Assembly (NCBI GenBank): GCA_038061215.1
Contig: JBBTZV010000021.1
Coordinates: 1 to 29,506, forward strand
Direction of reading: 5' to 3'
DNA length: 29,506 bases
From: Patescibacteria group bacterium
GTDB taxonomy: Bacteria > Patescibacteriota > Minisyncoccia > UBA6257 > UBA9933
Shown here: positions 1,366-22,300 of the stretch, piece by piece
Numbering within the stretch: position 1 is the stretch's first letter
How the letters are laid out: each line of letters begins with the position of its first letter
Translations under genes and position numbers: made by a program
The notes under the pieces: generated by a model
Databases searched by the model: none
What the model saw: only the letters and a program-made list of their open reading frames with translations
Told to the model about the DNA's origin: nothing

Positions 1366-2850
1366 TCACTTTACATAAAATTTCTTTTTTATCTCCTCCT
1401 CTGCCCCGCTCTCAAATTCATCTTTTTTTTCTTTCGCGTTCTTAGATAATTTTTCCAGCTTATCATCGGATAAATTACCAAACTCCTTGATTCTCAATGC
1501 TAAATACTTGCTGCTATTCTTGTCCGGCTCTTCAACCACTTCGTCAAGCAGAATTGACAGAATCCAACCGACTTTTGGGCCCGGCTCAATTTCTAAAATT
1601 TCCATTACGTCATTGCCGCTGACTTTCAACATTTTCGGAGAAAGCGGGTCGCGCTTCACTTTTTCAATCATAAAAAGCAAATGCCTCAATTTGTAAGGCA
1701 CGGCTTTCGGCACGCCGGAGCCGATTCTATCCGCTTCCCTTAATTTTATGAAATCTTCAACATTTTCCGGTCCAACGCGGCGCAGAAAACGCCGAACACC
1801 GGCTTCTGTCACTTCGCCCACATTGTAATAAAAAAGATGATAGCGGACAAGATGGACGACTTTTTCAATAAAAACTTTTGAAAAATGCAATCTATCCAAA
1901 GCTCGCGCCGCGATTTTCGCGCCAATTACTTCGTGATTGTAAAAAGTCGAATCCGGACCGTCTCCCGCCTTGGTTTCGGGCTTGCCGACATCATGAAGCA
2001 AAGCCGCCATTCTGATTTCCAAAGAATAATCTTTTTTTACGGCGTAATCCAAAGCGCGCAAATTATGTTCCCAAACCGTATAAATGTGGTGCTTGTTTTG
2101 GCCGACATTAATTCCCTCGCGCAACTCCGGCACAACATGACGAAGCAATCCCAAGTCCTCCAATGTTTGAACGCCTTTAACCGCGTTTTTTGTTGCCAAA
2201 ATTTTTTTAAACTCTTCGCAAATTCTTTCCTTAGCAATCATTTCCAGCAAATTGGCTTGTTTTCTAACGGCTTCGCTTGTTTTTTTCTCAATTTCAAAAT
2301 TTAATTCCGTCGCAAACCGCACAGCCCGCATCAATCGCAAAGCATCTTCGTTAAAACGTTCTTCGGGATTGCCGACAGTTTTAATAATTTTATTTTTAAT
2401 ATCTTTCTGACCGTTAAACGGGTCAATAATTTTTGAAAATTGAAAATTAGAAATTGAAAATTCCGCCGCGATGGCGTTTATTGTGAAGTCGCGGCGGGCA
2501 AGGTCTTCCTCAACCGTTTTGGCGAATTTAATTTCATCCGGATGCCGCTTATCGGTGTATTTTCCTTCCAGCCGAAAAGTGGTTATTTCAACGATTTTTA
2601 ATTTTGGGTTTTCGGAATCAGTTTTTACGGCAACAGTGCCAAATTTATTTTCATAAACGCTGTCCGGAAAAATTTTCTGAATTTCTTTTGGCTTAGCATT
2701 GGTTGTTATATCCCAATCTTTCGGTTCGCGCTCCATCAATAAATCGCGAACGCAACCGCCAACAAGATACGCCTGAAAATTTCCGCCAGTCGGCGGATTT
2801 TGAAGTTTTTTGGCAATCTCAATAATTTCTTCGGGAATATTGAATTTCAT
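1366..2850 (-). CDS. cca: class II CCA tRNA nucleotidyltransferase with HD domain
   Basis: Motifs GGCVRD..DWD, RRDFTINA, EDALRLMRAVRF and ERICEE; HD motif LLHDVGKP. No poly(A)-polymerase signature. Confidence 0.9.
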   Translation of the reverse strand: MKFNIPEEIIEIAKKLQNPPTGGNFQAYLVGGCVRDLLMEREPKDWDITTNAKPKEIQKIFPDSVYENKFGTVAVKTDSENPKLKIVEITTFRLEGKYTDKRHPDEIKFAKTVEEDLARRDFTINAIAAEFSISNFQFSKIIDPFNGQKDIKNKIIKTVGNPEERFNEDALRLMRAVRFATELNFEIEKKTSEAVRKQANLLEMIAKERICEEFKKILATKNAVKGVQTLEDLGLLRHVVPELREGINVGQNKHHIYTVWEHNLRALDYAVKKDYSLEIRMAALLHDVGKPETKAGDGPDSTFYNHEVIGAKIAARALDRLHFSKVFIEKVVHLVRYHLFYYNVGEVTEAGVRRFLRRVGPENVEDFIKLREADRIGSGVPKAVPYKLRHLLFMIEKVKRDPLSPKMLKVSGNDVMEILEIEPGPKVGWILSILLDEVVEEPDKNSSKYLALRIKEFGNLSDDKLEKLSKNAKEKKDEFESGAEEEIKKKFYVK

Positions 2851-2896
2851 TGAATTTAATTATAGACTAAATAACTAATAACTAAAAACTATTTTT

Positions 2897-2971
2897 GCTC
2901 TCGTAGTGAAATGGATATCACGACAGGCTTCGAACCTGTTATTGGGGGTTCGAATCCCTCCGAGAGCGCCA
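2897..2971 (+). tRNA. tRNA-Arg(UCG), CCA encoded
   Basis: GCTCTCG/CGAGAGC acceptor, ACAGG-CTTCGAA-CCTGT, ends GCCA. Confidence 0.95.
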
Positions 2972-2991
2972 ACCGAAAGCGCCGAAACTAA

Positions 2992-3064
2992 GCGCCCATA
3001 GCTCAGTTGGCAGAGCAGTCGCCTCTTAAGCGAACGGTCCCAGGTTCGACCCCTGGTGGGCGCA
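2992..3064 (+). tRNA. tRNA-Lys(CUU)
   Basis: GCGCCCA/TGGGCGC acceptor, anticodon loop CTCTTAA, T arm CCAGG-TTCGACC-CCTGG. Confidence 0.95.
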
Positions 3065-3091
3065 TAAAAATTATTTTTCATAAGGTCTACA

Positions 3092-3163
3092 GTCCTCGTG
3101 GTTCAATGGATAGAACACCGGCCTCCGAAGCTGAAGATAGAGGTTCAATTCCTCTCGAGGACA
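3092..3163 (+). tRNA. tRNA-Arg(CCG)
   Basis: GTCCTCG/CGAGGAC acceptor, anticodon loop CTCCGAA, T arm AGAGG-TTCAATT-CCTCT. Confidence 0.93.
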
Positions 3164-3205
3164 CAAAAATTGATTATTTTTGATAACTAATTAAAATTAA
3201 AAAAT

Positions 3206-3276
3206 GCGGGGTTAGTATAGTGGTAATACACCTCCTTGCCAAGGAGGAGCCGCGAGTTCGATTCCCGTACCCCGCT
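3206..3276 (+). tRNA. tRNA-Gly(GCC)
   Basis: GCGGGGT/ACCCCGC acceptor, U73, CCTCC-TTGCCAA-GGAGG. T stem GCGAG/CCCGT carries an A52.C62 mismatch. Confidence 0.94.
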
Positions 3277-3283
3277 TGTTTAT

Positions 3284-3309
3284 TGAAACTAAACTCCTTT
3301 TTATTCGTT
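3284..3309 (+). promoter_or_regulatory. putative ECF-sigma autoregulatory promoter
   Basis: TGAAAC-N16-CGTT directly before the ECF sigma start codon; resembles the B. subtilis SigW/SigM consensus TGAAAC-N16-CGT(A/C). Confidence 0.55.
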
Positions 3310-3313
3310 TCTT

Positions 3314-3850
3314 ATGATAGAAGAACAGCAAAAATTAATTAAGGAAGCGATTGCCGGAAAATCCGCGCCTTTTGGCTTGCTTTACGACCATTATCAGCCG
3401 ATTGTCTACCGATTTATCTACTTAAAAGTCAGCCATCGCGAAGAGGCCGAAGACCTAACCCATCAAGTTTTTTTGAGCGCCTGGCAGAATATTTCTGGAT
3501 TTAAAATCAAGAAAGAAGCGTCTTTTATAGGATGGCTTTATCAAATCGCCAGAAACAAAGTCATTGACCATTACCGGACAAAAAAACCGACCGTTGATAT
3601 TGACAATATCGCCGACCCGCCGGAAATTGGAAAATCCAACGAGGAAACGGCTGATTTCAGAATTGAAATTAAAATGGTTAAAAAGGCCATTCCCCTATTA
3701 AACGAAATAGAACAAGACGTGGTGATTATGAGATTCGTTGAAGATTTGACTTCAAAAGAAGTGGCGGAAATTTTAGAAAAATCAGAAGGAGCAATCAGAT
3801 TAATTCAACACAGAGCGATAAAGAAATTACAAAATATATTAAAACAATGA
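3314..3850 (+). CDS. ECF-family RNA polymerase sigma factor
   Basis: Region 2 (AEDLTHQVFLSAW, WLYQIARNKVIDHYR) and region 4 (EVAEILEKSEGAIRLIQHRAIKKL); 178 aa. Confidence 0.93.
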   Translation: MIEEQQKLIKEAIAGKSAPFGLLYDHYQPIVYRFIYLKVSHREEAEDLTHQVFLSAWQNISGFKIKKEASFIGWLYQIARNKVIDHYRTKKPTVDIDNIADPPEIGKSNEETADFRIEIKMVKKAIPLLNEIEQDVVIMRFVEDLTSKEVAEILEKSEGAIRLIQHRAIKKLQNILKQ

Positions 3851-4341
3851 ATATTTTTGAAATCCTAAAAGAATTAAAAAATATCAAGCCCGACCAAGAA
3901 TACGCGAAACAATCGCGGTATTTGATTTTGTCCCAGACGCCGGTGAACAAAAAAATCACCGTTGCGGAAATTTTTGATTGGATTTCAATTCATCGTTTGG
4001 CAACCGCCGCCAGCTTAATCGGCGTATTTATTCTTCTTGTGGTTTTAAGCGTTTCCTATCTGCCGGGCAATAAAAACAGCTTGGTGGCCGAAGCCGATGA
4101 AATCAATGCTTCAATAAAGATAAAATTAAACGACATGGGTTATCAGCTGCAAAATCCGGCGGAAATCAATATTAATGAAATACCGAATATCCAAAAAAAT
4201 TTGGAGGAAGTAACCAAATTAATGAAAGAAGCGCAAATTTTAAGTGAAAATAATAAAGATAAAAATATGGGAGAGTATTTGGAAAAAATTAAAGCCGCTC
4301 AAGCTCTGCTTACGGAAATAGAATCGCTGCTCGTCAAATAA
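3847..4341 (+). CDS. putative single-pass membrane anti-sigma factor
   Basis: ATGA-coupled to the ECF sigma. Short N-terminal soluble part, one TM segment (ASLIGVFILLVVLSVSYL), helical C-terminal domain. Confidence 0.65.
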   Translation: MNIFEILKELKNIKPDQEYAKQSRYLILSQTPVNKKITVAEIFDWISIHRLATAASLIGVFILLVVLSVSYLPGNKNSLVAEADEINASIKIKLNDMGYQLQNPAEININEIPNIQKNLEEVTKLMKEAQILSENNKDKNMGEYLEKIKAAQALLTEIESLLVK

Positions 4342-4369
4342 AATATCCCGCCGACTGGCGGGATATTTT
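4340..4369. terminator. bidirectional terminator between the anti-sigma gene and hup
   Basis: AAAATATCCCGCC-GACT-GGCGGGATATTTT plus T tract. The core matches the CCGCC-N4-GGCGG repeat family. Confidence 0.8.
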
Positions 4370-4387
4370 ATTTTTTATAATAAATTA

Positions 4388-4663
4388 TTATTTAACGGCT
4401 TCTTTTAATACCTTTCCTGCTTTGAATTTCGGTTTGGTTGAAGCCGCGATTTGAATTTTTTCTCCGGTTTTCGGATTAATGCCCATGCGAGCATCTCTTT
4501 TAACTGTTTTAAAAGTGCCAAATCCGACAATCGCCACTTCTTCTCCTTTGCTTAAAGTTTTTGTAATTATGTCAAAAACCGCTTCAACGGCGGCAACGCC
4601 ATCTTTCTTGGCCTCAATGCCAGCCGCCTGCATTACCGCTTCAACTAATTCTGGCTTATTCAT
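4388..4663 (-). CDS. hup: DNA-binding protein HU
   Basis: GFGTF, arm RMGINPKTGEKIQI, KPKFKAGK; 91 aa. Confidence 0.96.
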   Translation of the reverse strand: MNKPELVEAVMQAAGIEAKKDGVAAVEAVFDIITKTLSKGEEVAIVGFGTFKTVKRDARMGINPKTGEKIQIAASTKPKFKAGKVLKEAVK

Positions 4664-4743
4664 ATTTAAAATTTATCGCATTATTAGAAATTATTCTCTC
4701 CGACCTTTTAAGCTTTGTATTTAATTGTCAGATGTTAAACAAT

Positions 4744-4771
4744 AAGTGTCAAGTGTCAGGTATCAGGTGTC
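4744..4771. repeat. intergenic 7-bp-period array
   Basis: AAGTGTC AAGTGTC AGGTATC AGGTGTC. Confidence 0.8.
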
Positions 4772-4776
4772 AATAA

Positions 4777-6306
4777 CTATCTGGCGTACTCCACTGACCT
4801 TGTTTCCCTAATCACATTGACCTTAATCTCTCCGGGATATTTTAACTCGGATTCAATCTTGGCGGCAACATCCCGCGCTAATTGCATGGCGCCAAAATCA
4901 TCAATTTTTTCCGGCACCACGAAAATCCTGATTTCCCGTCCGGCGGAAACCGCGTAAGCGTTTTTAATGCCGCTGAAACCTTTAGCTATTTTTTCCAGAT
5001 TTTCCAATCTTTTGAGATAATTTTCAATGGTGTCGCGCCTGGCGCCGGGCCTTGCTCCTGACAAAGCGTCGGCAGCGGCCACAATGTAGGACTCCGGGCT
5101 GCTGAACGGATATTCTTCATGATGAGCCGCCATAGCGGAAATAATTTCTTCGCTTACGCCGAATTTTTTCAAAATCCTGACGCCCAATTCAACATGGCTG
5201 CCTCCGCCGACTTCCTGGTCAATGGCTTTGCCGATGTCGTGAAGCAAAGCTCCGATTTTGGCGATTTCCACGTTCAATCCCAATTCTGAAGCCATCATAG
5301 ACGCCAAATGCGCCGCTTCAATTGAATGATTCAAAACATTCTGGCCATAGCTGGTCCTGCAATAAAGCCGACCTAAAAGCTGGATGATTTCCTTCGGAAG
5401 ATTGTAAACGCCGACTTCGTAAGCCGCTTCTTCGCCTTTTTCGGTAATTTTTTTGTTAATTTCATTTCTCGCTTCTTCAACTTTTTCTTCGATTTTCACC
5501 GGCTGAATCCGACCGTCTTTAATCAATTTCTCCAAAGCCAATTTGGCGATTTCCCGGCGCACCGGATCAAAAGATGAAATAATTATGGCGCCCGGAGTTT
5601 CGTCAATTATGAATTCGGCGCCGGTTTCCTTTTCCAAGGTTTTGATGTTTCTTCCTTCGCGGCCGATAATTTTTCCCTTCAAATCTTCGTCAGCCAAATT
5701 AAAAGAAGTCGTCGTCACTTCCGCCACATGGGAACGCGCCATCCTTTGAATGGCAGTAGTCATAATCTGCGTTGCTTGCCGCTCAAGTTCATCCCTTCTT
5801 TCTTTCAATAATTTTTGAACGGCGATAACCAAATCTTCGTTGTATTTTTCTTTGGTAATGGCGAAAATTTTTTCTTTCGCTTCGGCTTCGGTAAATTTGG
5901 CGATATTTTCCAATTCAGCGCCCAATCGCTGTTTCACTTCTTCAACCTGAATTTTGGCTGATTTTATTTTTTCAACATCGTCCTTGATTTTATTTTCCTG
6001 AAAGCGCAAATCATTGCGCTCTTGCTCAAGCGACTCTTCTTTTTTCAACAATCGCTCTTCCAAACGGCCCAGTTGCGACTTCTGCTCTCTTTCTTCTTTT
6101 TTAATTTCCTCAAGAATGCCGGTGGCTTTATTCTGGGCGTCAAGGACTATCTCTTTAGCCTTGCTTTTAGCGCCTTCCAACTGCTCGCGAATTCTCTTTT
6201 CAACGGAACTGGTTTTTCTAACGGCAATCAGCTGCCGAATAAAATAGCCGGCCGCCAATCCAACCAACATTAAAGCTCCCCAAAAAATAGGATTTTGATA
6301 AATCAT
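4777..6306 (-). CDS. rny: ribonuclease Y
   Basis: N-terminal TM segment, coiled coil, KH domain (KGKIIGREGRNI), HD motif LLHDIGK, C-terminal YPGEIKVNVIRE. Confidence 0.97.
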   Translation of the reverse strand: MIYQNPIFWGALMLVGLAAGYFIRQLIAVRKTSSVEKRIREQLEGAKSKAKEIVLDAQNKATGILEEIKKEEREQKSQLGRLEERLLKKEESLEQERNDLRFQENKIKDDVEKIKSAKIQVEEVKQRLGAELENIAKFTEAEAKEKIFAITKEKYNEDLVIAVQKLLKERRDELERQATQIMTTAIQRMARSHVAEVTTTSFNLADEDLKGKIIGREGRNIKTLEKETGAEFIIDETPGAIIISSFDPVRREIAKLALEKLIKDGRIQPVKIEEKVEEARNEINKKITEKGEEAAYEVGVYNLPKEIIQLLGRLYCRTSYGQNVLNHSIEAAHLASMMASELGLNVEIAKIGALLHDIGKAIDQEVGGGSHVELGVRILKKFGVSEEIISAMAAHHEEYPFSSPESYIVAAADALSGARPGARRDTIENYLKRLENLEKIAKGFSGIKNAYAVSAGREIRIFVVPEKIDDFGAMQLARDVAAKIESELKYPGEIKVNVIRETRSVEYAR

Positions 6307-6366
6307 AATGGAATTTAATTAAAATAATCATTTGCGACAAATTAAGTATAAGGTTAAAATAAGAAA

Positions 6367-7923: not shown

Positions 7924-9148
7924 TTTTCAATAACCGTTCGTACTTCGCCAATCTTTCCGGATTTGCCGGAGCGCCGGCTTTTATCCCCCAAGCGCCGACT
8001 CCGACAGCCAAATCAGCAATAAAATCATCAAGTGTTTCCACGCTTCGATGAGAAACAATAGTTTGCCAATTATTTTCATAGGCCAGTTTTACGACTTTTA
8101 AAGTTTCGGTTAGAGTGCCAATTTGATTCGGTTTTATCAAAATCGCGTTGCCGGATTTTTGAGCAATGGCGGTTTTCAATCTTTCGGAGTTGGTAGTTGT
8201 CAAATCATCAGCGATAATTAAAATTTCTTTTTTATTCGCCGCTATCCTATTGGATAGCGCGGAAAAATCATCAAACGCCTCTTCGCAAAACGGATCTTCT
8301 ATTGAAATAATATTGTGAGTCTCTATTAATCTTAAATAATATTCCCTTAATTCATCGCTTGAATATTTTTTCCCGCCAATTAAATAATGGTCCTCTTTAA
8401 AAAACTGGGAAGCGGCGACATCCAAGCCGATTCTTAATGGATGTTTATATTTTTCTATAACTTCGGCAATACATTCAATGGCTTCTTCGTTGTTTTTGAA
8501 AGGCGCGCTATAACCCGCTTCATCGCCCAAAACCACATTTTCTTTGCCGAATTTTTCCCTTAAATAATCGCCTAATTTCCGATAAAAAATCTTCCCCAAA
8601 CTGAATCCCAAATTAAAATCATCGGCTTCCGGAATAACCTGAAATTCCTGAAAACTTAATTTACTTTCCTGATGAGCGGCATGCGCGCCGCCGTTGATGA
8701 CATTGAAAATTGGCCGCGGCCAATTTAACATTTGACCATTGACCTTTGACATTTGACTAATATATTCAAACAATTCTAATCCTTCAAATCTTGCTCTTAA
8801 TCTCGCCCAAGCCAAAGACAAGGCCAAAATCAAATTTCCGCCCAAATTGCTTTTAGCTTGCCCTGAGCTTGTCGAAGAGGTTCCGTCCAGCGCGATTAAA
8901 AAATTGTCTAAATCTTCTTGCGTTTCAATCCGCCCGCTGGCGGACGCAGCCAAAATCTGCGACTTTATTTCTTCAAATTTTTTAAGCGCTAATTTCGGCT
9001 CCAAAACAAACGCCTCGTGCGTTCCAACGCTTTTGCCGGCCGGCACGCTGGCTTTGGCTGAAAAATCTTCGCTTATTAATTCCGCTTCCAAAGTATCTTT
9101 GCCGCGGGAATCTTTAATTATTTTCAGGTTAGCATCAATAATTTTCAT
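7898..9148 (-). CDS. eno: enolase (divergent, catalytic residues retained)
   Basis: DSRG, NGGAHA, QEF, GDEAG, LDVAAS, SIEDP, ADDL, IKPNQIGTL, VSHRS, RLAKY. Its 3' end overlaps gpmI convergently by 26 bp. Confidence 0.93.
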   Translation of the reverse strand: MKIIDANLKIIKDSRGKDTLEAELISEDFSAKASVPAGKSVGTHEAFVLEPKLALKKFEEIKSQILAASASGRIETQEDLDNFLIALDGTSSTSSGQAKSNLGGNLILALSLAWARLRARFEGLELFEYISQMSKVNGQMLNWPRPIFNVINGGAHAAHQESKLSFQEFQVIPEADDFNLGFSLGKIFYRKLGDYLREKFGKENVVLGDEAGYSAPFKNNEEAIECIAEVIEKYKHPLRIGLDVAASQFFKEDHYLIGGKKYSSDELREYYLRLIETHNIISIEDPFCEEAFDDFSALSNRIAANKKEILIIADDLTTTNSERLKTAIAQKSGNAILIKPNQIGTLTETLKVVKLAYENNWQTIVSHRSVETLDDFIADLAVGVGAWGIKAGAPANPERLAKYERLLKINNLKLKI

Positions 9149-9614: not shown

Positions 9615-9634
9615 ATTGATATTTCATGTTTTTA

Positions 9635-9662
9635 ATTATATTTTACTAAATTTCTTTGTCAA
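9635..9662 (-). promoter_or_regulatory. consensus sigma70 promoter of the TA-eno unit
   Basis: Minus strand TTGACA-N16-TATAAT. Confidence 0.75.
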
Positions 9663-9703
9663 CTTAAAAAATCAAAAGCAGTTAAGGCGCGTATTTAATT
9701 AAT

Positions 9704-10336: not shown

Positions 10337-12795
10337 TTTATCTTTTTTTCTTTTTCGTAAACCGCCAAAGTGGTTTTAATAACCGTATCCGGATTTAAAG
10401 AAATGCTTTCGATTCCTTGTTCCACTAAAAATTCGGCAAAATCTTCGTAATCTGACGGCGCTTGGCCGCAAATGCCGATATATTTGTTTTTTTCTTTGCA
10501 TTTTTTAATGACTTCGCTAATCAATTTTTTGACTGATTCGTCTTTCTCATTGGTGATACTTCTAATCATTTCATTGCCGTCTCTGTCAATGCCAACGGTT
10601 AATTGCGTCAAATCATTTGAACCAATGCTCATCCCGTCAAAAATATCCAAAAATTCATCGGCTAAGATAACATTTGACGGTATCTCGCACATTACATAAA
10701 CTTTAAGCCCTTGTTCGCGGCTTAAGCCATTTTTCCTCATAATTTCCAAAACTTTTTTTCCTTCTTCTGGAGTGCGGCAAAAAGGAATCATTGCTTCCAC
10801 ATTATTCAAGCCCATTTCTTCGCGGACTTTTTTGACGGCTTTGACTTCCAATTCAAAGGCCGGCGCGAAATTCGGATGATAATATCTTGAAGCGCCGCGC
10901 CAACCAAGCATCGGATTTTCTTCTTGCGGTTCGTATAATTCGCCACCGATAAGCGAGCGATATTCATTAGTCTTAAAATCGGAAAACCTGACAATCACCG
11001 GATTGGGATAAAAAGCCGCGGCGATTTTAGCGATGCCATAGGCAAGTTTATCCACATAAAATTGAGTTTTATTTTTATAACCGATTATTTTTTTATTTAT
11101 TTGAGTTTTTAATTTTTTATTTTTTATTTTAAGTTTATCGTAATTAATCAGCGCCATCGGATGTATTCCAATGTCCGAAGCGATAATAAATTCTTCCCTC
11201 GCCAATCCCACGCCATCATTAGGCAAAAACGACTTTTCAAAAGCGGTTTCCGGAGTGGCGATATTGAGCATTATTTTTGTTTTTGTCCGCCAGCTGGCGG
11301 ATTGGAATTTTTTAACATTGTGTTCTATTATTTTAAATTCCAAATCGCCGTCATAAACAAATCCCTCGTTGCCGGTCGTGTCAACGGTTATTGTCCGACC
11401 GGTTTTAATTTTTTTGGTGGCGTTTCCGCTGCCGACAATGCAAGGTATGCCCAATTCGCGGCTCACTATCGCGGCGTGGCTTGTTCTTCCTCCTTTGTCC
11501 GTAATAATCGCCGAAGCCATTTTCATAATCGGCTCCCAATCGGGGTCGGTCATATCGGTAACTAAAATTTCTCCAGCCTTGAATTTGTTGATGTTTTTCG
11601 CGTCTAAAATCATCCGCGCCCTGCCAGAAGCAATTTTACTTCCCACCGAAGCGCCTTTGACTAAAACATTTGACCTTTGCCCTTTGACATCTGACAAAAT
11701 ATATTCTTTTATTTTTGAAAAATCGCGGCCCGCGTGAATTGTTTCCGGCCTTGCTTGAACAATGAACAGTTCGCCTGTTCGACCGTCTTTTGCCCATTCC
11801 AAATCCATTGGCGTCCATTTGCCGTTTTTGTTTGAATAATGCTCTTCAACCAAAACCCCCCATTTCGCCAACCGCAAAATTTCTTCATCTGATAAGGCAA
11901 AATTTTCCTTTTCTTTTTGCGAAGTTTTTATAATTTTCGTGTTTTTTACCGAAATCCCCCGGCCTTCCGAATAAACCATTTTTCTGTTTTTGACACCGAG
12001 TTTTTTATCAATAATCGGTTTATATTCCAATTCGCCCAATTTTTTTTTAAATATTAAAAATTCGTCCGGCGTCACTTCGCCTTGCACAATCATTTCGCCC
12101 AATCCCCAAGAGCCGTTTATCAAAACCGCGTCTCTAAAACCGGATTCGGTATCCAGAGTAAACATCACGCCGGAACATCCGAGATCTGAACGCACCATTT
12201 TTTGAACTCCGACTGAAAGCGCGACTTTAAAATGGTTAAAACCCTTGTCAACTCTGTAAGAAATCGCCCTGTCGGTGAAAAGCGAAGCCATTGCCGATTT
12301 CACAGATTTTAAAATTTCGCCGTCTCCGCGGATATTCAAATAAGTTTCATGTTCGCCGGCAAATGACGCGCCCGGCAAATCTTCGGCAGTCGCGCTGGAA
12401 CGCACCGCCACATCGGCATTTTTGCCGTATTCGTCTTCCATATTCCGATAAGCCGTCACTATTTCCTGCCTTAAATCGCTTGGAAATTCTGATTTTTTTA
12501 TCGCTTCCCTGATGACCTTGCCGCGCTTCGCCAAATCTTTTAAATTTTTCGTATTTAATTCTTTTAAAATTTCTTTAATAAATTTTTTTAAAGAAAATTG
12601 CTTGTTGTTTATTGTAAGTTGCGAATTTTTTAAAAAATATTTATACGCGCTGGCCGTCACTATAAATCCGCCGGGAATTTTCACTCCTTTCGGCGTCAAA
12701 TTTTGAATCATCTCGCCGAGAGAGGCGTTTTTCCCGCCCGCCTCGGAAACGTCTTTAATACCGACATCTTTAAGTTGTTTGATAAATGGCTTCAT
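10333..12795 (-). CDS. ppsA: phosphoenolpyruvate synthase (pyruvate, water dikinase)
   Basis: GGKNASLGEM, VRSSATAEDLP, GGRTSHAAIVSRELG, EENPMLGWRGASRY, SIGSNDLTQL, GICGQAPSD. Confidence 0.97.
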   Translation of the reverse strand: MKPFIKQLKDVGIKDVSEAGGKNASLGEMIQNLTPKGVKIPGGFIVTASAYKYFLKNSQLTINNKQFSLKKFIKEILKELNTKNLKDLAKRGKVIREAIKKSEFPSDLRQEIVTAYRNMEDEYGKNADVAVRSSATAEDLPGASFAGEHETYLNIRGDGEILKSVKSAMASLFTDRAISYRVDKGFNHFKVALSVGVQKMVRSDLGCSGVMFTLDTESGFRDAVLINGSWGLGEMIVQGEVTPDEFLIFKKKLGELEYKPIIDKKLGVKNRKMVYSEGRGISVKNTKIIKTSQKEKENFALSDEEILRLAKWGVLVEEHYSNKNGKWTPMDLEWAKDGRTGELFIVQARPETIHAGRDFSKIKEYILSDVKGQRSNVLVKGASVGSKIASGRARMILDAKNINKFKAGEILVTDMTDPDWEPIMKMASAIITDKGGRTSHAAIVSRELGIPCIVGSGNATKKIKTGRTITVDTTGNEGFVYDGDLEFKIIEHNVKKFQSASWRTKTKIMLNIATPETAFEKSFLPNDGVGLAREEFIIASDIGIHPMALINYDKLKIKNKKLKTQINKKIIGYKNKTQFYVDKLAYGIAKIAAAFYPNPVIVRFSDFKTNEYRSLIGGELYEPQEENPMLGWRGASRYYHPNFAPAFELEVKAVKKVREEMGLNNVEAMIPFCRTPEEGKKVLEIMRKNGLSREQGLKVYVMCEIPSNVILADEFLDIFDGMSIGSNDLTQLTVGIDRDGNEMIRSITNEKDESVKKLISEVIKKCKEKNKYIGICGQAPSDYEDFAEFLVEQGIESISLNPDTVIKTTLAVYEKEKKIK

Positions 12796-12804: not shown

Positions 12805-14181
12805 TTACTCATTTAACGAACTCAGAACAAGCATGAGGTCCGCCACATTAAAACATTTTTTTTCGGCGAAAATCAAATCGCCGGTTTTTTTGAAGAAATT
12901 GAAAGAATCGTGATTTTCTAAAAATTCTTTCGGTTTTAATTTTAATTTTTTTGCTTTTTCTAAAGTTAAAAAATCGCCAATCGCTCCGGCGGCTTCGGTA
13001 TTATCAAAACCATCAGACGCAAAAGACATTATTGCTAAATTTTGACATCTAAAACCTGACATCTGACATTTAACCAATGCGCCCAATACTGCTTCCATAT
13101 TTCTTCCTCCCCTCTCCGCCTTTATTTCATGTTTTTTCAGAGTAACTGTTGTTTCTCCGGCAGCAATTAAAGCTTCGCCCATCTTAACTTTTGCCGTCAT
13201 CGATAATAACGCCGCGCTTGCTTCTCCTTCAAGCGCCAAGGAATAAATTTTCGGCTTAAAACCCAATTCTTCGGCCTTACTCACCATTGCCATTACAGCA
13301 TCTTGATTGCAGGCAAATAAAATATTTTTTACATTTTTAAAATAATTTTCATACCCGGTAGTAGAACTGCGTTCACTACGGGGCTTCGCTTTCGGCGTTT
13401 CGTATAATTTAAATTTATCCGGATTAAACCCGTATTTTTTTAAAATTTTTTCCGCGTCTTTTTTCGCCGTTTTATCATAAACCGTCGGACCTGAAGCCAC
13501 ATTGGACAAATCATTGCCGCAAACATCAGAAACTATCAATGAAATAACCGTTGCCGGACAAGCCATTTTCGCCAAACCGCCGCCTTTAAATTCCGACAAA
13601 TGTTTTCTAACGGTATTCAGCTCATTTATATTCGCGCCTGCTCTCGTTAATTCTTTTATCGCCAGAATGGAATTTTTTAATTCTTCTTTTGAAGCGCAAG
13701 CCAAAGCCGAACCGCCGCCGCAAATAAAAGCAATCAATAAATCTTTTCCAGTTAAGCTTTTAACCAATTTAATGATTTCTTGAGTGGCTTTGATGTTTTG
13801 TTTTGAAGGCAAGGGATGAGTACCTACAAAAGTTTTGAGCTTATAAGCTTTTAAGCTTTTAAGCTTATTAACATCTAAAGCGATTCCACCGGTTAATTTT
13901 TTGCCTAAAATTTTTGCCGAAGCTGTAATTGCCAAAGCCGAACCCTTGCCTATTCCAACAATATAAATCCTTTCAAAATCATCAAGGTTGGTTTCTATTT
14001 CATTTTTCTTTTCGTCAAAAAAAGCCGTATGACCAATTTTTAATAAATTATCTTTTATCTTAATTCGTTCTGAAACAATTTTTTCTATATTAATGCCTTC
14101 ATAACCAGCTTCGGCAATTTTAAGCGCTTTTTTGCGAAATGAGTTTACGGCGAGATTTTTAAAATTAATTATATTTTTCAT
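12805..14181 (-). CDS. glycerate 2-kinase (TtuD/GckA type, DUF4147 + MOFRL)
   Basis: GIGKG, HPLP, ICGGGSAL, LNTVRKHLS.FKGGGLA, SDVCG.D...VASGPT, GGRN, SDGFD, NVADL. Confidence 0.92.
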   Translation of the reverse strand: MKNIINFKNLAVNSFRKKALKIAEAGYEGINIEKIVSERIKIKDNLLKIGHTAFFDEKKNEIETNLDDFERIYIVGIGKGSALAITASAKILGKKLTGGIALDVNKLKSLKAYKLKTFVGTHPLPSKQNIKATQEIIKLVKSLTGKDLLIAFICGGGSALACASKEELKNSILAIKELTRAGANINELNTVRKHLSEFKGGGLAKMACPATVISLIVSDVCGNDLSNVASGPTVYDKTAKKDAEKILKKYGFNPDKFKLYETPKAKPRSERSSTTGYENYFKNVKNILFACNQDAVMAMVSKAEELGFKPKIYSLALEGEASAALLSMTAKVKMGEALIAAGETTVTLKKHEIKAERGGRNMEAVLGALVKCQMSGFRCQNLAIMSFASDGFDNTEAAGAIGDFLTLEKAKKLKLKPKEFLENHDSFNFFKKTGDLIFAEKKCFNVADLMLVLSSLNE

Positions 14182-14184
14182 TTT

Positions 14185-14901: not shown

Positions 14902-14913
14902 AAATATATTATA

Positions 14914-16764
14914 TCAAAATAATTTTTTCGCTTCATCCCAAAATTCCGGATGATTCTGTTTTTCTTTCATCCAATACATCCACTCTATGCCCCATAGGTA
15001 ATTTTTTTCAAAACCAACGCTTTTCGCATATTCAATATTTTCTTTAAACTGATTAAGGTCAAAAACTTTCAGTTGTTCTTCAAGAGGAATTTCCGGCGGC
15101 CGTTTTTTAAGCCACGGTTCTGCTTGAAGTTCAATTCCAATTATCGGCTTTTTGCCGAAAAACATTTCCATAATCCGGGTTTTAATTTTGAAAAATTCCG
15201 GCTCTAATGGATATTTAAGATAGCCGTCGCCGGGCATAATCCTTGTCCAAACTACCCGATACATCGTGGTGCCGAAAATATCCGCTCTTTTATACGCCTT
15301 GAACCACAATCCAAATTCGCCGCTGTCGGTTAAAATTATCGGTCTTGAAGAATCAAGTTTTTTGACCAAAACTATTTCTTGGCCTAAAAATTCATCATCA
15401 ACTTTCGGACATTCGCCAAAACCCCACAAAAACGGTTCGTTTTCAATTTGCCACGCCCAAATCGCCGGATTATTTTTATAACGACTCACAACCGCTTCAA
15501 TATATTTTAGCAATGCGTTATTCTTCATTTCTATTTCATAATCATTAATCCATTCCGGCTCGTGGCATTCCGGCCATCGCGGCAATCTTTTGCCGATTGC
15601 CAAAATTATTTTTCCGCCGGATTTTTCAATTTCATTTATCTGAAAATCAAGCTCGGAAAAATCATAAACCCCTTCTGTTTTCTCAATTTCCGACCAATGG
15701 GCGTTAAGCCGGAAATTTTTCACTTTCAAATCATTGATAACGGCTATCAAAACATTTCGACTATCAAGACCCAACTCCTTGCTGTATAAAGAAGAAAAAT
15801 CAACGCCCCAGATTTTTGCGCCCGGAGTTTGCGCCGGCTGAATCAATAAAATCAAAACACCGAAGATTATTAATAAAATGGCGATTGATTTTCGAAAAAT
15901 CGACCAAAAAGATATCTGTTCGCCCATTAAATTAGGCCATTTTCTGGCCATAAAAGCGGCTAAAATTATCAAAAAGGCGTACCTAATGCCGCCTAAGCCG
16001 TTTACTAAAGTTAAATTGCCGATAGAAACTGCGTAAAGCAAAATAATATTGGCGACAAACGCCAAAAATTGCTTTAAAACCACGAGGCCCCCTAAATAAT
16101 TCCAGATAAGTTTTTTTGCTTTTTCAAAATTTATTGAATTTATTCCCGCTCCGGAAAACTTTTTGAGCTTAAATCCGCGACCGTAAACCGCCAAAAAAAC
16201 AACCACGGCGGTCATAAATCCGCCTAGTCTTGATAAGATGTAGCCGGAAATGAAATTCGTATTATTGAAAATGATCTTCAAAAAAACATAGCCAAGAGAA
16301 ATAAAAATAGCGGCTATGACAAGATAAAAAACTGAACTTAGTTTGTATTGGCGGCTGAATGAAATTACAAAACCGCCGACAAGAAGCAGAATAAAAGCAA
16401 GCGCCTGGAAAAACGTCAAAGTCTCGCTCAAAAAAAAGTGGCCAAAAACAAAAGTAACAATTGGCGTAAAAACCCCGAAAAGAAGCGGCGCCACCCAGCT
16501 GGCTTCGTTTTCCAAAAGCGCCTTAAAATAAAAATAAAGTCCTGCGCCAAGACAAAATCCGCTTAAAAAAGCCAAAAAAATTATTGAATTTTGCGGCAGA
16601 ACAAAATCAACAAAAGGGATAAGAACGACAGCCAGTCCTTCAAACGCTCCGATAACTAAAGCGTATTTAAGCGGTGAAAAAATTTTCTTGACTAAAATCT
16701 TGTCCAGCGCGAAAACAATGGCGAAGAGAAAATTTGAAAAAATTACTAAATAAAGCCAGTTCAT
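14914..16764 (-). CDS. fusion: N-terminal EamA/DMT-like multi-TM domain + C-terminal clan GH-A glycoside hydrolase
   Basis: About 305 aa of repeated hydrophobic helices with DMT-like spacing, then WGVDFS..RLNAHWSEIE..WQIENEP..IELQAEPW..YLWG. One uninterrupted ORF. Confidence 0.8.
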   Translation of the reverse strand: MNWLYLVIFSNFLFAIVFALDKILVKKIFSPLKYALVIGAFEGLAVVLIPFVDFVLPQNSIIFLAFLSGFCLGAGLYFYFKALLENEASWVAPLLFGVFTPIVTFVFGHFFLSETLTFFQALAFILLLVGGFVISFSRQYKLSSVFYLVIAAIFISLGYVFLKIIFNNTNFISGYILSRLGGFMTAVVVFLAVYGRGFKLKKFSGAGINSINFEKAKKLIWNYLGGLVVLKQFLAFVANIILLYAVSIGNLTLVNGLGGIRYAFLIILAAFMARKWPNLMGEQISFWSIFRKSIAILLIIFGVLILLIQPAQTPGAKIWGVDFSSLYSKELGLDSRNVLIAVINDLKVKNFRLNAHWSEIEKTEGVYDFSELDFQINEIEKSGGKIILAIGKRLPRWPECHEPEWINDYEIEMKNNALLKYIEAVVSRYKNNPAIWAWQIENEPFLWGFGECPKVDDEFLGQEIVLVKKLDSSRPIILTDSGEFGLWFKAYKRADIFGTTMYRVVWTRIMPGDGYLKYPLEPEFFKIKTRIMEMFFGKKPIIGIELQAEPWLKKRPPEIPLEEQLKVFDLNQFKENIEYAKSVGFEKNYLWGIEWMYWMKEKQNHPEFWDEAKKLF

Positions 16765-18074
16765 TTTTTTATAATTTTAGCGTATTCCAGCGCGCTTTTT
16801 CGAATTTTCCGTTTCATTGTTTTTCCGCCAGAGGCGGATCCGCCTTTGGCGGAATAATCAACTTCCACTAGCCCAAATCTCGGCCAAAAACCTTTATCCC
16901 ATTCAAAATTATCCAAAAGCGACCAGTAAAAATATCCGCGGACGTCAACGCCCCCTTGAATTGCTTTATTAACCCAATATAAATGCTCTTTAATAAATTT
17001 CCCCCGTTTTTCATCTTTAGCGTCGGCAAGGCCGTTCTCGGTAATATAAATCGACTTGCCGTATTTTTTCAAATCTTTTAAAACATAATAAATTCCTTCG
17101 GGATAAATTTCCCAGCCCAAATCGGAAACTTCGCGGTTTTCATTTTGATTAAATTTAAAATTCTTAATTAGGTTATAAAAATAATGATTCAAACCGATAA
17201 AATCATGATATTTTTTTATGCGATTCAAAAAATAAAAATTCCACCACCAATCAATTATTTTTTTAAGCAAGCGGTTTATTAATTTATTTTGATACGCCTC
17301 AAAATAAACATTGTTTTTGGCGATGCCGACTTTAACGGCTGGCTGGATTTTTTTGATAATTTTATATGCCTCGCGGTGCGCTTTGATTAAATTTTCAATT
17401 ACTAATAAATAAGACAGTGGATTTCTTTTCTGCGGCGGCCATTCTCCTTTTAAATAAGATATACTGCTGTAAATTTCCGGCTCATTCAAAGTGATCCAGA
17501 ATTTAATTTCATAATCAAATTTGGAAACAATTTTTTCAACATATCTTAAAAAATATTCAATTGTTTTTTTGTTTTCCCAACCGCCAATATCGCGAATCCA
17601 CAAAGGATTGGTCCAATGCCAAAGCGTTACAAACGGCTCAATGCCGCGGCTTTTTAATGCTTTTATAACTTTTCTATAATGCTCAATTTCTTTTTCGTTA
17701 AATTTTCCTTCCTCCGGCTCAATCCGGCTCCATTCAATAGAAAAGCGATGCGCGTTATGGCCCAAAGATTTGGCAATGTCAAAATCTTCTTCAAAGCGGT
17801 TATAGTAGTCGCACGCTCGGCCGGAAATGTAATTTTGCGGGTTTTGCGCCTGTTCTTTAATTTCCGGCCAATTTTGCAAATACCCGAATTTTTTCTTTGC
17901 TTCCTTTGCCAATCTCTCCGCATTTTCTTTTTCCCACTCTGTCCAGTCATTATGATTATTTCCTTCAACCTGATGCGCCGAAGTAGAACTCCCCCAATAA
18001 AACCTCGCAGGAAAAATTAATTTTTGATTTTCTAATGGAACAGGATTTTTAAAAAATTGAAATTTATCTAACAT
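16761..18074 (-). CDS. glycoside hydrolase family 1 (beta-glucosidase-like)
   Basis: FYWGSSTSAHQVEG, RFSIEWSRIEP, TLNEP (acid/base), ITENG (nucleophile), WSLLDNFEW..G..PRFGL. Confidence 0.95.
   Translation of the reverse strand: MLDKFQFFKNPVPLENQKLIFPARFYWGSSTSAHQVEGNNHNDWTEWEKENAERLAKEAKKKFGYLQNWPEIKEQAQNPQNYISGRACDYYNRFEEDFDIAKSLGHNAHRFSIEWSRIEPEEGKFNEKEIEHYRKVIKALKSRGIEPFVTLWHWTNPLWIRDIGGWENKKTIEYFLRYVEKIVSKFDYEIKFWITLNEPEIYSSISYLKGEWPPQKRNPLSYLLVIENLIKAHREAYKIIKKIQPAVKVGIAKNNVYFEAYQNKLINRLLKKIIDWWWNFYFLNRIKKYHDFIGLNHYFYNLIKNFKFNQNENREVSDLGWEIYPEGIYYVLKDLKKYGKSIYITENGLADAKDEKRGKFIKEHLYWVNKAIQGGVDVRGYFYWSLLDNFEWDKGFWPRFGLVEVDYSAKGGSASGGKTMKRKIRKSALEYAKIIKK
16824..16853. repeat. in-frame tandem hairpin element (2 x TCCGCC-N3-GGCGGA) in GH1
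   Basis: TCCGCCAGAGGCGGATCCGCCTTTGGCGGA, 30 nt, encodes SAKGGSASGG. Confidence 0.85.
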
Positions 18075-18672
18075 AAATAATTAATGAAACTACAGCAATT
18101 ATGAAAATTAAAAATTCAATAATAAAAATTGGGTGCCACTTTTCATAGATATTTTTTACCCAATCGGCATCCCCGTGTTCTTTAGCGTAAAAACCCAAGT
18201 CTTTCTCATTAAAAGAAAAAATAAGCTTTTTTAACCCATTCTTTTCTTTCCCTGAATAAAGATATAAAAAAGCGAAATTGTTGGTAGAAAATGGGTAAAG
18301 CCACTTTATTCCCCAGCCAATTCCAATACTGTCATGAACAAAATGAAGAAACGACGATACGCTAAACAAAAGACTCCATTCTTTACCAAAAAATAATAGA
18401 GCAATCATTCCTATTGGTATAAAAATAAGAGGATAATGTGAAATATCGCGGTGACGATAATCTTCTTCCCCCGATTTATTTTTTATTAGATAAAATAAGA
18501 AATCTATATCCGGCAATAGAGCGAAAATGACAGCAATAATAAAAACCAAAAAATTAAGTTCAATCTTAAAAATCGAACTTATAAAAATTGCTGAAAAAAT
18601 CCCGAAGCCAATATCAGCAATACAAACTTTTAAATTACTCCAATAAAAATTTTTCGGAAATTGAAATTTCAT
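18064..18672 (-). CDS. YdjM/LexA-binding-like inner-membrane metal-dependent hydrolase
   Basis: LLPDID, HRDISH, HFVHD, G..WLYPF motifs and several TM segments. Confidence 0.8.
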   Translation of the reverse strand: MKFQFPKNFYWSNLKVCIADIGFGIFSAIFISSIFKIELNFLVFIIAVIFALLPDIDFLFYLIKNKSGEEDYRHRDISHYPLIFIPIGMIALLFFGKEWSLLFSVSSFLHFVHDSIGIGWGIKWLYPFSTNNFAFLYLYSGKEKNGLKKLIFSFNEKDLGFYAKEHGDADWVKNIYEKWHPIFIIEFLIFIIAVVSLIIYVR

Positions 18673-19343
18673 TTTTTATGAATCTTGATTCCGTCTTCTC
18701 CAATGGTGATAAAAATTGAAGGAATGTCTGTCCAACAGCCGACATTAAAATAATTAACGCCGCTGATAATCTCTGCCGCTTCCCGATGAATATGTCCGCA
18801 AAAAACATAACGAACGCCCATTTTAAAAGCATGGCGCGCCGCGCCCTGCGCGATTTTTTCAGAAAGCCGAAGCCATTTCTTAGAAGCTCTTTTTACAAAA
18901 CGGCTTAATCTCAAACTAGACCTTTGCAAAATTATGTAAATAAATGAAGCGATGTCGCTGACAAATTTATTGTTTGCCAAAAATCTGTCAAACTGATGGC
19001 CGTGAATTGCCAGATATTTTTCGTTTTTATATTTCCAAATATATTCTTGTGTCACTGTAATTCCGATAAAATGAGATATCACTTTGAATATAAGCTCATC
19101 GTGATTCCCTAAAACCCAAACTATTTCAATATTGCGTTTTGGATTGGAAAGTTCCTGAATATAAGAGAGAAGCTCCCAATGATCTTTTTCTAAATTGCTG
19201 AAATTTAAATCGTCAAAAATATCTCCCAAAAGAATAAGGCGATCAAAGTTGTGAGCTTTAAGAACGCTTAGCAGCTCTTTCGCCCGGCTTACTGCCGAAC
19301 CAAGATGAATATCCGAAACGATGAATGTGTCAATTTTAGCCAT
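18669..19343 (-). CDS. calcineurin-like metallophosphoesterase (LpxH-like family)
   Basis: DIHLG, GDIFD, GNHD, HGH and GHIH metal-binding motifs. Confidence 0.88.
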   Translation of the reverse strand: MAKIDTFIVSDIHLGSAVSRAKELLSVLKAHNFDRLILLGDIFDDLNFSNLEKDHWELLSYIQELSNPKRNIEIVWVLGNHDELIFKVISHFIGITVTQEYIWKYKNEKYLAIHGHQFDRFLANNKFVSDIASFIYIILQRSSLRLSRFVKRASKKWLRLSEKIAQGAARHAFKMGVRYVFCGHIHREAAEIISGVNYFNVGCWTDIPSIFITIGEDGIKIHKK

Positions 19344-19347
19344 AAAT

Positions 19348-22300
19348 TTAACTTTTTTTAATCCTTAACCAGATTTTTGAACCGTCAATTTTGATTTCCG
19401 CTTCCGCGTCAAATTTGTCGGTTTTTGCAAGCTCAATAGTTTTAACTCCAATGTCTTTTTTAAGATTTTCCGTATTATTGCTTATCAGCCGCTTGAAATA
19501 ATCATCAGCTTCAATATGCAAAACCCCCTTGTCTTTTGGAGTATAACCGGCTTCTTTTCTTAAATCCTGGATAACGCGCGTCAATTCGCGCAATTGCCCT
19601 TCGGCTTTTAATTCCGGCGTGATATTTATGTCTAATTCAACATCGCTCGCGATATTTTTATCAAAAATAATTTCTTTAACGTTAATTTCGTCTTTAATCA
19701 AATCTAATAATTCTTTATTGCTCTTGATGCCTGATACTTGATGCTTGATACTTATTTTTGCGAGCGGCTGACGCACTCTTATCCCCGCTTTTTGCCGCGC
19801 TTCAAGCCCCAAAGAAACAATGCGCCTGATTTCTCTCATTTGCTCCAGGATTTTTTCTTCTTTCCTTAAAAATACTTTTTTAATTTTCTGCCAAAAAAGC
19901 GTAGCCGGCCAATTTTCCAAATGAACAGAATCTTGGCATTTGACATCTGACATTTGACATCTGACATTTTGATAAATTTTTTCCGCAATAAACGGCATAA
20001 ACGGCGCGATTATTTTGGAAAATTCCAACAGAACATATCGCGTTGTCGCAATGGCGCTTTGCTTATCCTCGCTTTCTTCTTTAAATCTGCCTCTTGAACG
20101 CCGAATGTACCAAGTTGACAAATCGTCAATAAAATCAAAAACCGGCTGGCTGGCTTTATCAAGTTCATAATTTTCCATTGCCTCTGATATTTCTTGAATC
20201 AACTGGTTAAGCCGCGCCGAAATCCATAAATCTAAAACATTTCTTGATGCTTGATCCGCCAACTGGCGGATGATACTTGATACTTTTTCATCCGCGTAAA
20301 GCTCATAAAACTTATAAACATTCCACAGCCGCAAAATCACTTTTTTATAAACCTCGTCAACGCCTTTTTCGGAAAAATTAAAGTCTTCAGCGCGAACAAC
20401 ATGTGAAGATAAAAGATAAAGCCGCAAAGCGTCGGCGCCGTATTTATTGACTACTTCAACCGGATCGGGATAATTTTTCAATCTTTTGCTCATTTTCTGG
20501 CCGTCTTCAGCCAAAATAATGCCGTTGACAATCACGTTTTTGTAAGCCGGTTTATTGAATAAAGCGGTTGATAAAACAAGCAAAGTATAAAACCAGCCGC
20601 GGGTCTGATCCAATCCTTCGGCGATAAATTCCGCCGGAAAATTTTTTTCAAATTCTTTTTTATTTTCAAAAGGATAATGCGCTTGGCCGTAGGGCATGGC
20701 GCCGGATTCAAACCAGCAATCAAAAACATCGGCAACCCGCTTTAATTCATTGCCGCAATCGCATTGAAGATTGATTTCATCAATGTATGGTTTATGCAAA
20801 TCAAGTTCGTAATTTTTATTGTGAGGAATCGGAATAAAATCAAGTTCCAGAAGCTCGGCGGTTTTAATGAAGTCATTTCCTTTTTCTTGTTTCATTCTTG
20901 CCGATTTTTTAGCGTCAGCGCCGATTGCCGCGCCAAACATCAGCCAAATCGAATATTCATGAGATATAATTAAAATATTTTTTTCGGAATATTTATTTTC
21001 AATATCATATAAAAATTCTGCCATTCGATTTTTCAACTCGGTTAAATTTTCTCCTTCGGGCGGAATTTTGTAAAATTTTTCTTCCAGCGAAGAAAAATAA
21101 TTGTGGTATTCTTCATGAGTTTTGTTGTCAAAAACGCCGGTGTTCACCTCTCTTATTCTTTCGTCAAATATTATTTTGTCTTGGGCATAGCCAAGCGTTT
21201 TAGCGACAATTTCCGCCGTTTGTTTGGTTCTTAAAAAATCGGAAGCAAAAATAATATCGATGTTTTTTAATTTTTCAGCGGCTTTTTCGGCTTCTTTCTT
21301 TCCTTTTTCAGTTAATGAATGATTGCGGCTGGTTTCTAATTTTGAACTGACTTTATTTTCGGCATTATGAATCGCTTCAGCATGCCGCATCGCAAAATAA
21401 TGATTTCCTGATTTTTTAGCGTATTTTTTCAACTCTTCAAGCGAACCAATTACTTTAATTTTTTCGCATTTATCGCAACGCCAAACCGGCAATGGCGCTC
21501 CCCAAAATCTGCTTCTTGAAATTGCCCAATCGCGAATGCCTTCAAGCCATTTGCCGAAACGCCCTTCTTTGAGATGCTCCGGAATCCATTTAATTTTCTT
21601 ATTGTTTCCGATAAGTTTATCTTTAATCGCCAGGACTTTCACGAACCAAGAAGCGCTGGCGTAATTCAAAAGCGGCGTATCGCACCGCCAGCAATGAGGA
21701 TATGGATGAATAATTTTCTGCTTGCTGAAAAGATTATTTTGATTGGCAAGAAATTTGATTATTTCAATATCTGCTTTTTGATGTTCTGCTTTCGGCTTTA
21801 CCAGCATGCCGGCAAAATCTTTAACTTCCGGTTTGAATCTGCCGTCAATTGAAACATGCTGAATAAAAGGCAAATTATGCTTCTGCGCCAAATTCATGTC
21901 GTCTTCACCGAACGCCGGCGCAATATGAACAACACCCGTGCCTTCTTCGGTTAAAACAAAATCTCCAGCGTAAATTTTCCATCCGTTATCGCGGTTTTTT
22001 AAATTTTTATCCGTTGAATAATAATTGAATAACGGCTTGTATTTTTTGCCAATTAAATCTTTGCCCTCAATTTCTTTTTTTACTTCATGCTCCTTATCTT
22101 TAAATACATCTCTAACTCTATCTTTGGCAACAATATATTTATTATCGTCTCCTTTAATACTTACTATTTGATACTTAATGTTCTGATTGACCGCCAATGC
22201 CGCGTTTCCCGGCAAAGTCCACGGCGTTGTCGTCCATGCCAAAACATAAGTATTCGGTTCATCAACAAGTTCAAATTTCGCCATCACGGAAATATCCGTA

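Follow-up and report, generated by a model that had tools for sequence, protein, structure and literature searches.

Palindromes of 15-16 nucleotides within housekeeping genes of a Patescibacteria group bacterium: probable copies of a very short insertion element

Short palindromes scattered through bacterial genomes are known in several guises. [quoted passage not shown] In cyanobacteria, Elhai and colleagues are said to have described in 2008 the small dispersed repeats (SDR) 4 to 6 of Nostoc/Anabaena, reportedly hairpin repeats of 21-27 nt that occur with STRR heptamer repeats. Repetitive extragenic palindromes (REPs) lie outside genes and are tied to a RAYT gene (PMC3116915), while the Rickettsia palindromic elements (RPEs) are about 150 bp long, carry a conserved peptide and are confined to Rickettsia (PMC10969869). 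Here we analyse a contig of 29,506 nt (JBBTZV010000021.1 of assembly GCA_038061215.1, a Patescibacteria group bacterium; the whole stretch is called the window below), for which a first reading made from the sequence alone had reported hairpins of the form TCCGCC-N3/4-GGCGGA inserted in frame in housekeeping genes. The hairpins probably represent a palindromic, non-autonomous DNA insertion element of very small size, which occurs in two forms: a 16-mer whose consensus is the perfect palindrome TCCGCC-AGCT-GGCGGA, and a 15-mer with a 3-nt loop that is usually met as a 30-nt twin. Its copies are found in RNase P RNA as well, can lie one inside another, deteriorate through point mutations and vary between near-identical strains.

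Full-text literature searches by sequence and keywords returned no description of the element, which in our reading is undescribed and akin to RPEs and to cyanobacterial SDRs. Like RPEs, it is palindromic, lies in frame in unrelated housekeeping genes, is translated and tolerated by the fold, and no cognate transposase is known for it; yet it is ten times shorter (15, 16 or 30 nt), is read in several phases and crosses phyla. SDRs are reported to be likewise very short dispersed hairpin repeats with no known mover, located within tandem heptamer repeats, nested in their own copies and present or absent in similar contexts; here too, hairpins of less than 30 nt occur in heptamer arrays (8 of 25) and in themselves (in the RNase P RNA of G048 and the IscS gene of G016, two genomes of the same family). 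Unlike SDRs, the present elements measure 15-16 nt (30 as a twin) as opposed to 21-27 nt and are not known to be related to them in sequence, their hosts are Patescibacteria and other uncultured phyla, and they are mostly in frame in essential genes with a fixed junction in which 16 nt stand for 4. REPs, with the related BIMEs and REPINs, are also short GC-rich palindromes with many copies per genome, whereas here 88% of the copies are intragenic and no link to Y1 genes appears. MITEs share the non-autonomous, inverted-repeat-bounded and dispersed character, but at our sites with conserved flanks four nucleotides are lost (16-mer) or nothing changes (twin), with no duplication; 3-nt direct repeats accompany copies only in heptamer arrays, because of the array period. 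No MITE-like parent is apparent, as the window has no transposase, no genome-wide search for a parent IS element having been made. Finally, DUS/USS are very dense and accumulate by substitution, in contrast to one copy per 11.5 kb and an indel at every tested site.

Searched for as an exact pattern, the motif occurs six times in the window, at the positions first reported, and not once in any of 100 dinucleotide-preserving shuffles. All six lie inside long open reading frames (ORFs) of the minus strand, where the peptides quoted in the sequence-only reading are all correctly translated, and Pfam agrees with the host genes as named there: a CCA-adding enzyme, enolase, an enzyme of the PEP synthase/PPDK type, a family 1 glycosidase (GH1) and isoleucyl-tRNA synthetase (IleRS). 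The copies, with a hairpin of variant stem, are as follows.

2782..2797: 16-nt element with loop AGTC in the CCA-adding enzyme gene (cca; minus strand), exact match, read as NPPTGG
8929..8944: 16-nt element with loop CGCT/AGCG in the enolase gene (eno), exact match, read as ASASGR
11286..11301: 16-nt perfect palindrome with loop AGCT in ppsA, exact match, read as QSASWRT
16824..16853, minus strand: 30-nt twin of two 15-nt hairpins (16824-16838 and 16839-16853) in the GH1 gene, read as SAKGGSASGG
20255..20270: 16-nt element with loop AACT/AGTT in ileS, exact match, read as IRQLAD, nested in a heptamer array
4336..4373, plus strand: terminator-like hairpin with core CCCGCC-GACT-GGCGGG (4347-4362), a 17-pair stem followed by a T run

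The twin loops are AAA and TCT on the coding strand (AGA and TTT on the other). The claim that all loops start with AG holds when the strand is chosen copy by copy and fails on one common strand. Folding energies, computed for DNA, are about -6 to -7 kcal/mol for the 16-mer and -12.7 kcal/mol for the twin. The terminator-like hairpin at 4336..4373, whose core had been taken for that of a terminator in the first reading, begins within the last codons of ORF 3847-4341; its core lies directly past the stop codon, and the 20-nt core has a folding energy of -9.6 kcal/mol as DNA. An intrinsic-terminator pattern would fit this variant only, the in-gene copies having no T run.

The hairpin copies are true insertions relative to orthologues. 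In the alignments indels fall exactly at the sites, with four additional residues per 16-mer and ten for the GH1 twin. Relatives at the ppsA site were metagenome contigs (L-numbers), and those at the ileS, SecA, IscS and RNase P RNA sites were family genomes (G-numbers); the nearest public data to the window are groundwater metagenomes, and close homologues bear the source names Candidatus Wolfebacteria, Parcubacteria or Patescibacteria. In cca, the window has KLQNPPTGGNFQ where the relatives L016 and L024 have KLQK-ANFQ, and in the DNA the 16 nt stand for AGCC with the flanks intact on either side. The eno copy (QILAASASGRIETQ with respect to the empty QIL-SREFQSQ; net +12 nt, 19 aligned relatives) is present only in the window and L015 and is missing from the closer relatives L013 and L014, as well as from L016, indicating a patchy distribution. 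In ppsA, where KKFQSASWRTKTK faces KKFP-KPKTK, the target site is a 7-nt-periodic stretch, and 74 of 79 aligned relatives are empty; orthologous copies carry two stem mismatches in L013 and L014 and one in L017, so copies decay after insertion. On another contig of the same genome (G000), a conserved motif of SecA, LNALTGKGVH, is replaced by LNALAAPPAGGGVH, the site being empty in all 29 relatives, and IscS has IGAPPAGGFRE in place of IGADFRE (28 of 30 relatives empty, with a decayed copy in G010 and the nested one in G016). Further insertions of four residues occur in ileS and IscS of relatives and in GyrB. Among 120 homologues of the GH1 protein, 114 lack any insert at this site, three have the twin (one of them only 63% identical to the window protein) and two a single 15-nt unit (SAKGG or SASGG), so the site was hit or reshaped repeatedly. 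The ten residues fall at the VDY/KT turn, as first proposed, and PDB entry 1vff has no residues there.

Insertion follows a fixed junction rule. The 16-mer stands exactly in place of four bases, with intact flanks, in cca, at two IscS sites (one in G044), in SecA and in ileS of G016, and its net change is always +12 nt at sites with conserved flanks. The same +12 is found in the non-coding RNase P RNA, which has no reading frame to preserve, and the rule is thus mechanistic and more than a survivor effect. In GH1 the twin adds 30 nt cleanly between GATTAT and AAAACA, nothing being lost or duplicated, and a reverse-oriented twin in the IscS gene of G017, read as SARGGSAFGG, is likewise a clean +30 nt. 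Since the 16-mer adds 12 nt and the 15- and 30-mers enter cleanly, every event is a multiple of three and stop-free, and hence translated as a short loop. The loops match the replaced 4-mers at roughly half the positions (hand count), and it is possible that the loop is the old target with arms added around it, which would fit the +12 and which we keep as a possible microhomology effect; against this, the consensus is AGCT whatever the target, and the twin loops are not target-derived. Entry of a 12-nt core into TCGA, TTAA or CCGG targets was rejected, as heptamer arrays without those tetramers still bear full arms, and so was the mirroring of a pre-existing GGCGGA half-site, as no empty site examined contains a full arm.

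The genome that harbors the window (as contig C21) is a 392-kb draft of 42 contigs with 39.8% GC and an estimated completeness of 86%. It contains 34 perfect copies, about one per 11.5 kb, and no other GC-rich hairpin with a stem of 6 bp comes near this number, those that follow in rank having 5-6 copies. Counted by location, 30 of the 34 copies lie in the 374 long ORFs, about 30-fold above the null obtained by synonymous-codon shuffling within genes (mean 1.05, maximum 5), while codon permutation gave 0.05. As long ORFs account for 82% of the DNA and for 88% of the copies, the element does not avoid genes. Chance or codon bias was rejected as a source, since hexamer frequencies predict less than one pair and codon shuffles about one copy, despite a general enrichment of GC-rich tetramers in this genome. 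The mismatch spectrum consists of 34 perfect, 11 one-mismatch and 49 two-mismatch copies, compared with 0.05, 0.95 and 19.7 in triplet shuffles. Pairing is kept in stem variants (TTCGCC/GGCGAA, five copies; CCCGCC/GGCGGG, two to three copies). Every single-step variant of the consensus loop AGCT is a transition, as would be expected if the copies descend from a single master. Translation of the 16-mer uses all three phases. One copy lies in the leader of a prepilin-like protein (contig C4:1372-1387), within a short leader peptide and directly upstream of the G/FTIVELL processing motif.

The 16-mer has a preferred landing ground in tandem arrays of 7-nt units, and such arrays, together with AT-rich loop-coding DNA, are its commonest hosts. 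About fifteen arrays are found in the window, several in frame within genes, among them the following.

2433-2462: heptamer array
8723-8757: heptamer array
11669-11688: heptamer array
13043-13069: heptamer array
19723-19753: in-frame heptamer array in ileS (Tandem Repeats Finder, period 7, 4.4 copies)
19937-19969: in-frame heptamer array in ileS (Tandem Repeats Finder, period 7, 4.4 copies)
24735-24770: heptamer array
27912-27944: heptamer array

The eight of 25 genome-wide 16-mers with heptamer-periodic flanks compare with 2.2% of random positions. In all eight, phase is restored only when the hairpin is removed together with 3 nt (49 of 56 matches; other offsets 9-16), which is the 16-for-4 rule seen modulo 7. 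The ileS copy at 20255..20270 is flanked by 7-mers of the CTTGATG/CTTGATA type, in an array at about 20243-20285. Every genus of the family has at this site an array of a different heptamer unit; G018 (L004) has the same units as the window, uninterrupted, and G004 (L002) a decayed hairpin. The co-location may in part arise merely since arrays mark permissive loops.

The motif extends far beyond this genome. Of the 51 genomes of the GTDB family, 49 contain it (33 of 34 genera); counts per genome range from 0 to 85 copies, against 0-2 for a reversed-pattern control, and the two motif-free genomes are 89% and 98% complete. In the phylum, 150 of 251 sampled genomes contain it, with up to 75 copies (control at most 2); this tally includes one unpublished genome, G216, with one copy, on which none of the conclusions rests. 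For the exact 30-nt twin, whose pattern fixes 24 bases, at least 120 stretches were found among species-representative genomes, some of them metagenome-assembled genomes (MAGs) that carry the labels Omnitrophota, Kiritimatiellae, Ignavibacteria, Planctomycetales, Lentisphaerae and Gammaproteobacteria. Where the twin falls in a long ORF, it almost always keeps a single reading phase, whichever way it is oriented (SAKGGSASGG or SARGGSAFGG; pattern SAxGGSAxGG). On both strands TTT stands upstream of it and AAA downstream; at GH1 these are native target bases, so that the flanks resemble a target preference. Four groundwater metagenomes, compared at contig level for depth and alleles, each show a 20- to 60-fold rise in depth at the twin, which has dozens of different flanks there.

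Copies affect structured RNA as well as proteins. At the position of helix P18 of RNase P RNA, 16 of 30 relatives have a short linker only, while the element stands there in G000 (contig C12:16303-16319; locus L098 1004-1020; loci of relatives L297, L301, L302, L307 and L313), G002, G004, G037 and G052, and in three nested layers in G048; G013 has a copy elsewhere in the molecule. The element may therefore have rebuilt a lost P18 helix. The converse, that P18 itself was the master copy, was rejected, since those 16 relatives have no hairpin and the others have the element with non-GNRA loops. In proteins, the inserts are read as short surface loops rich in Gly, Pro, Ser and Ala, with frames that stay open and stop-free. 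That they would map to loops in predicted structures had been anticipated, and an AlphaFold2 model of the GH1 protein (mean pLDDT 84) gives pLDDT below 50 to residues 410-417 of the insert, which lie between two strands (403-405 and 422-424) and form the only internal stretch of at least eight such residues.

At strain level, the comparison concerns L099, from another groundwater sample, which shares with the window ArgS, IleRS and four further proteins at 98-100% identity.

21979..22026, minus strand: empty ileS site of the window (DKN-L), where L099 has a +12 variant, TTCGCC-AGCT-GGCGAA (DNSPAGEL)

Substitutions cluster around the variant element, and in contigs of four groundwater runs 77 letters replace the 65 of window positions 21952-22016. 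The difference is one of strain-level presence and absence, and its form suggests short-patch transfer as opposed to a bare insertion. The GH1 gene (16761-18074) is only 85% identical to L099 10001-11314, among neighbouring genes that are 98-100% identical, so that the locus is a recombination mosaic; both alleles nevertheless have the twin. In ppsA (77% and 76% identical to that of the window) L015 and L016 agree at the hairpin site, yet their eno alleles are very different, the eno hairpin being in L015 only, which points to a recombination breakpoint between ppsA and eno. Taken together, the divergent GH1 alleles and the sharing of ppsA without eno argue that recombination between lineages is common.

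Both conditions under which the original proposal of an ultra-short mobile or templated element would have failed turned out in its favour, with indels at the sites in orthologue alignments and a motif count about 30-fold above the codon-shuffled null, whereas movement or templating is still inferred. The replacement of 4 nt by 16, the preference for heptamer arrays, the spread across the phylum and beyond it, and the RNase P RNA copies go further than that proposal. Several observations weigh against an insertion element. No mover enzyme was found: the window proteins include no transposase (Pfam), as first reported, and the 86% complete genome has no match to a Y1 HUH transposase (PF01797) or a reverse transcriptase. 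Among the 51 family genomes, copy number correlates neither with Y1 genes (Spearman 0.11, p = 0.42) nor with S23p genes (PF05635; 0.01). A direct insertion event was observed nowhere, and the sole strain-level difference, being a replaced patch of 65 to 77 nt, may reflect allele exchange. The nested layers in the RNase P RNA of G048 add 13 nt each rather than 12, and in arrays a loss of 4 nt is indistinguishable from a 3-nt duplication with loss of one 7-nt unit. Lastly, perfect copies outnumber one-mismatch copies (34 to 11) and ppsA copies are perfect in lineages only about 76% identical, so that some constraint or homogenisation acts on the arms, for which a purely selfish scar would have no need.

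That last point also favours a functional site selected by the host, such as a 6-4-6 protein-binding site, a DNA-uptake site or an RNA hairpin, of which insertion would be only the origin. Its arms are constant across the phylum, perfect copies far exceed those with one mismatch, arms are kept better than loops in orthologous copies, and stem variants co-vary. Nonetheless, site occupancy is patchy even among close relatives and orthologous copies decay, the family ranges from 0 to 85 copies with two genomes devoid of any, the density is about one per 11.5 kb, and sites arise by indels and not by substitution; we consider such a function unlikely as the explanation. A REP- or REPIN-like hairpin, copied on single-stranded DNA by a RAYT or an IS200/IS605-type Y1 HUH transposase, would agree with the short GC-rich form, with the absence of target duplication typical of HUH enzymes, and with the Y1_Tnp-like ORFs of 18 of the 51 family genomes. 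However, PF01797 is missing from G000, G014 (42 copies), G048 (61), G052 (45) and the 100% complete G017 (28), G008 has one Y1 gene and zero copies, and median copy number is 12 with a Y1 gene and 11 without, so that the search proposed in the sequence-only reading gave no co-occurrence across the family. The intragenic location of most copies, the lack of a GTAG-type 5' motif and the loss of four target bases also disagree with this route, which is distinctly unlikely. S23p, present in 42 of 51 genomes, was rejected as a mover for want of any association with copy number, and several complete or nearly complete high-copy genomes lack both Y1_Tnp and S23p. As a separate observation, the single S23p gene of G000 (591-902; contig C29:496-964, locus L093) lies between inverted heptamer arrays of the GTATTTA/GTATCTA and TACTAAA type.

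Could the hairpins have formed on the spot, with no element moving, when replication or repair went wrong in slippage-prone heptamer arrays (by template switching, quasi-palindrome correction or fold-back synthesis)? Their strong association with 7-nt arrays, the nested and arm-multiplied forms and the substitution cluster around the strain-level insertion would suit such an origin. Template switching copies local sequence, though, whereas one set of 12 arm bases recurs in arrays whose units are unrelated, in conserved, non-repetitive codons of SecA and IscS, and in other phyla; none of the empty sites examined has a full arm, although the IscS and SecA flanks are arm-like (GCGGA, GGCGTC). In-place formation is thus very improbable. 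Selection might instead act on the peptide (SAKGGSASGG or PPAGG, for example, as a flexible linker), the DNA likeness being a by-product of codon bias. This finds some agreement in the nearly single phase of the twin and in the many second-loop differences that are synonymous Ser codons; it hardly deserves credence when synonymous shuffling leaves 1.05 copies of 30, all three phases are used for the 16-mer, RNase P RNA and intergenic DNA have copies too, and the DNA is identical in hosts of 33-63% GC. Least credible, to the point of being negligible, is an assembly or library artefact (adapter or chimera): short palindromes can be artefacts in principle and contig depth piles up at the element, but the same filled sites recur in independent assemblies of different projects, with open frames and lineage-specific mutations.

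For the insertion element, which we retain as the probable explanation, constant arms across the phylum, the fixed junction and the excess of perfect copies argue for sequence-specific recognition by something widely shared. A folded or self-annealed element might be joined into a 4-nt-staggered break whose overhangs are lost, or alternatively enter single-stranded DNA at the replication fork. The trans-acting function, reading the constant 6-bp arms, would be a conserved host enzyme or a widely shared foreign one, and not of the Y1/RAYT kind. Filled alleles would then spread among related lineages by short-patch homologous recombination.

Other features of the window stand apart from the copies. 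IleRS (19348-22899) includes a histidine-phosphatase domain (His_Phos_1, residues 504-672), and IleRS proteins of similar length are found across the order. The ORF at 14914-16764 encodes 616 residues with an EamA-type transporter domain and a glycoside-hydrolase-like domain (Pfam EamA, Glyco_hydro_42). The stretch 27418-29160 encodes a DNA polymerase of family X that has a PHP domain, of note only in that polymerases which fill gaps work at break junctions.

We tentatively regard the element, at somewhat less than even confidence, as the smallest class of mobile DNA so far: a palindrome of 15-16 nt with a deterministic junction, moved by an enzyme or repair route of a type not yet linked to mobile DNA, shared across many uncultured phyla, and rewriting surface loops of essential proteins and helices of structured RNAs. 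If it is mobile, the known lower size limit of mobile DNA would drop to about 15 nt, and a selfish element could live in the essential genes of the most reduced genomes, being in frame and stop-free by construction. The fixed 16-for-4 junction is a signature that any proposed enzyme has to explain, and the constancy of the sequence across phyla offers a ready probe for pull-down or binding assays. The elements also bear on alignment-based phylogeny and on structure prediction of their host proteins. Through them, new loops keep arising in glycolytic enzymes, aminoacyl-tRNA synthetases, SecA, GyrB and IscS, and RNase P RNA has gained a new helix; insertions of this kind thus matter for protein and RNA evolution in Patescibacteria.

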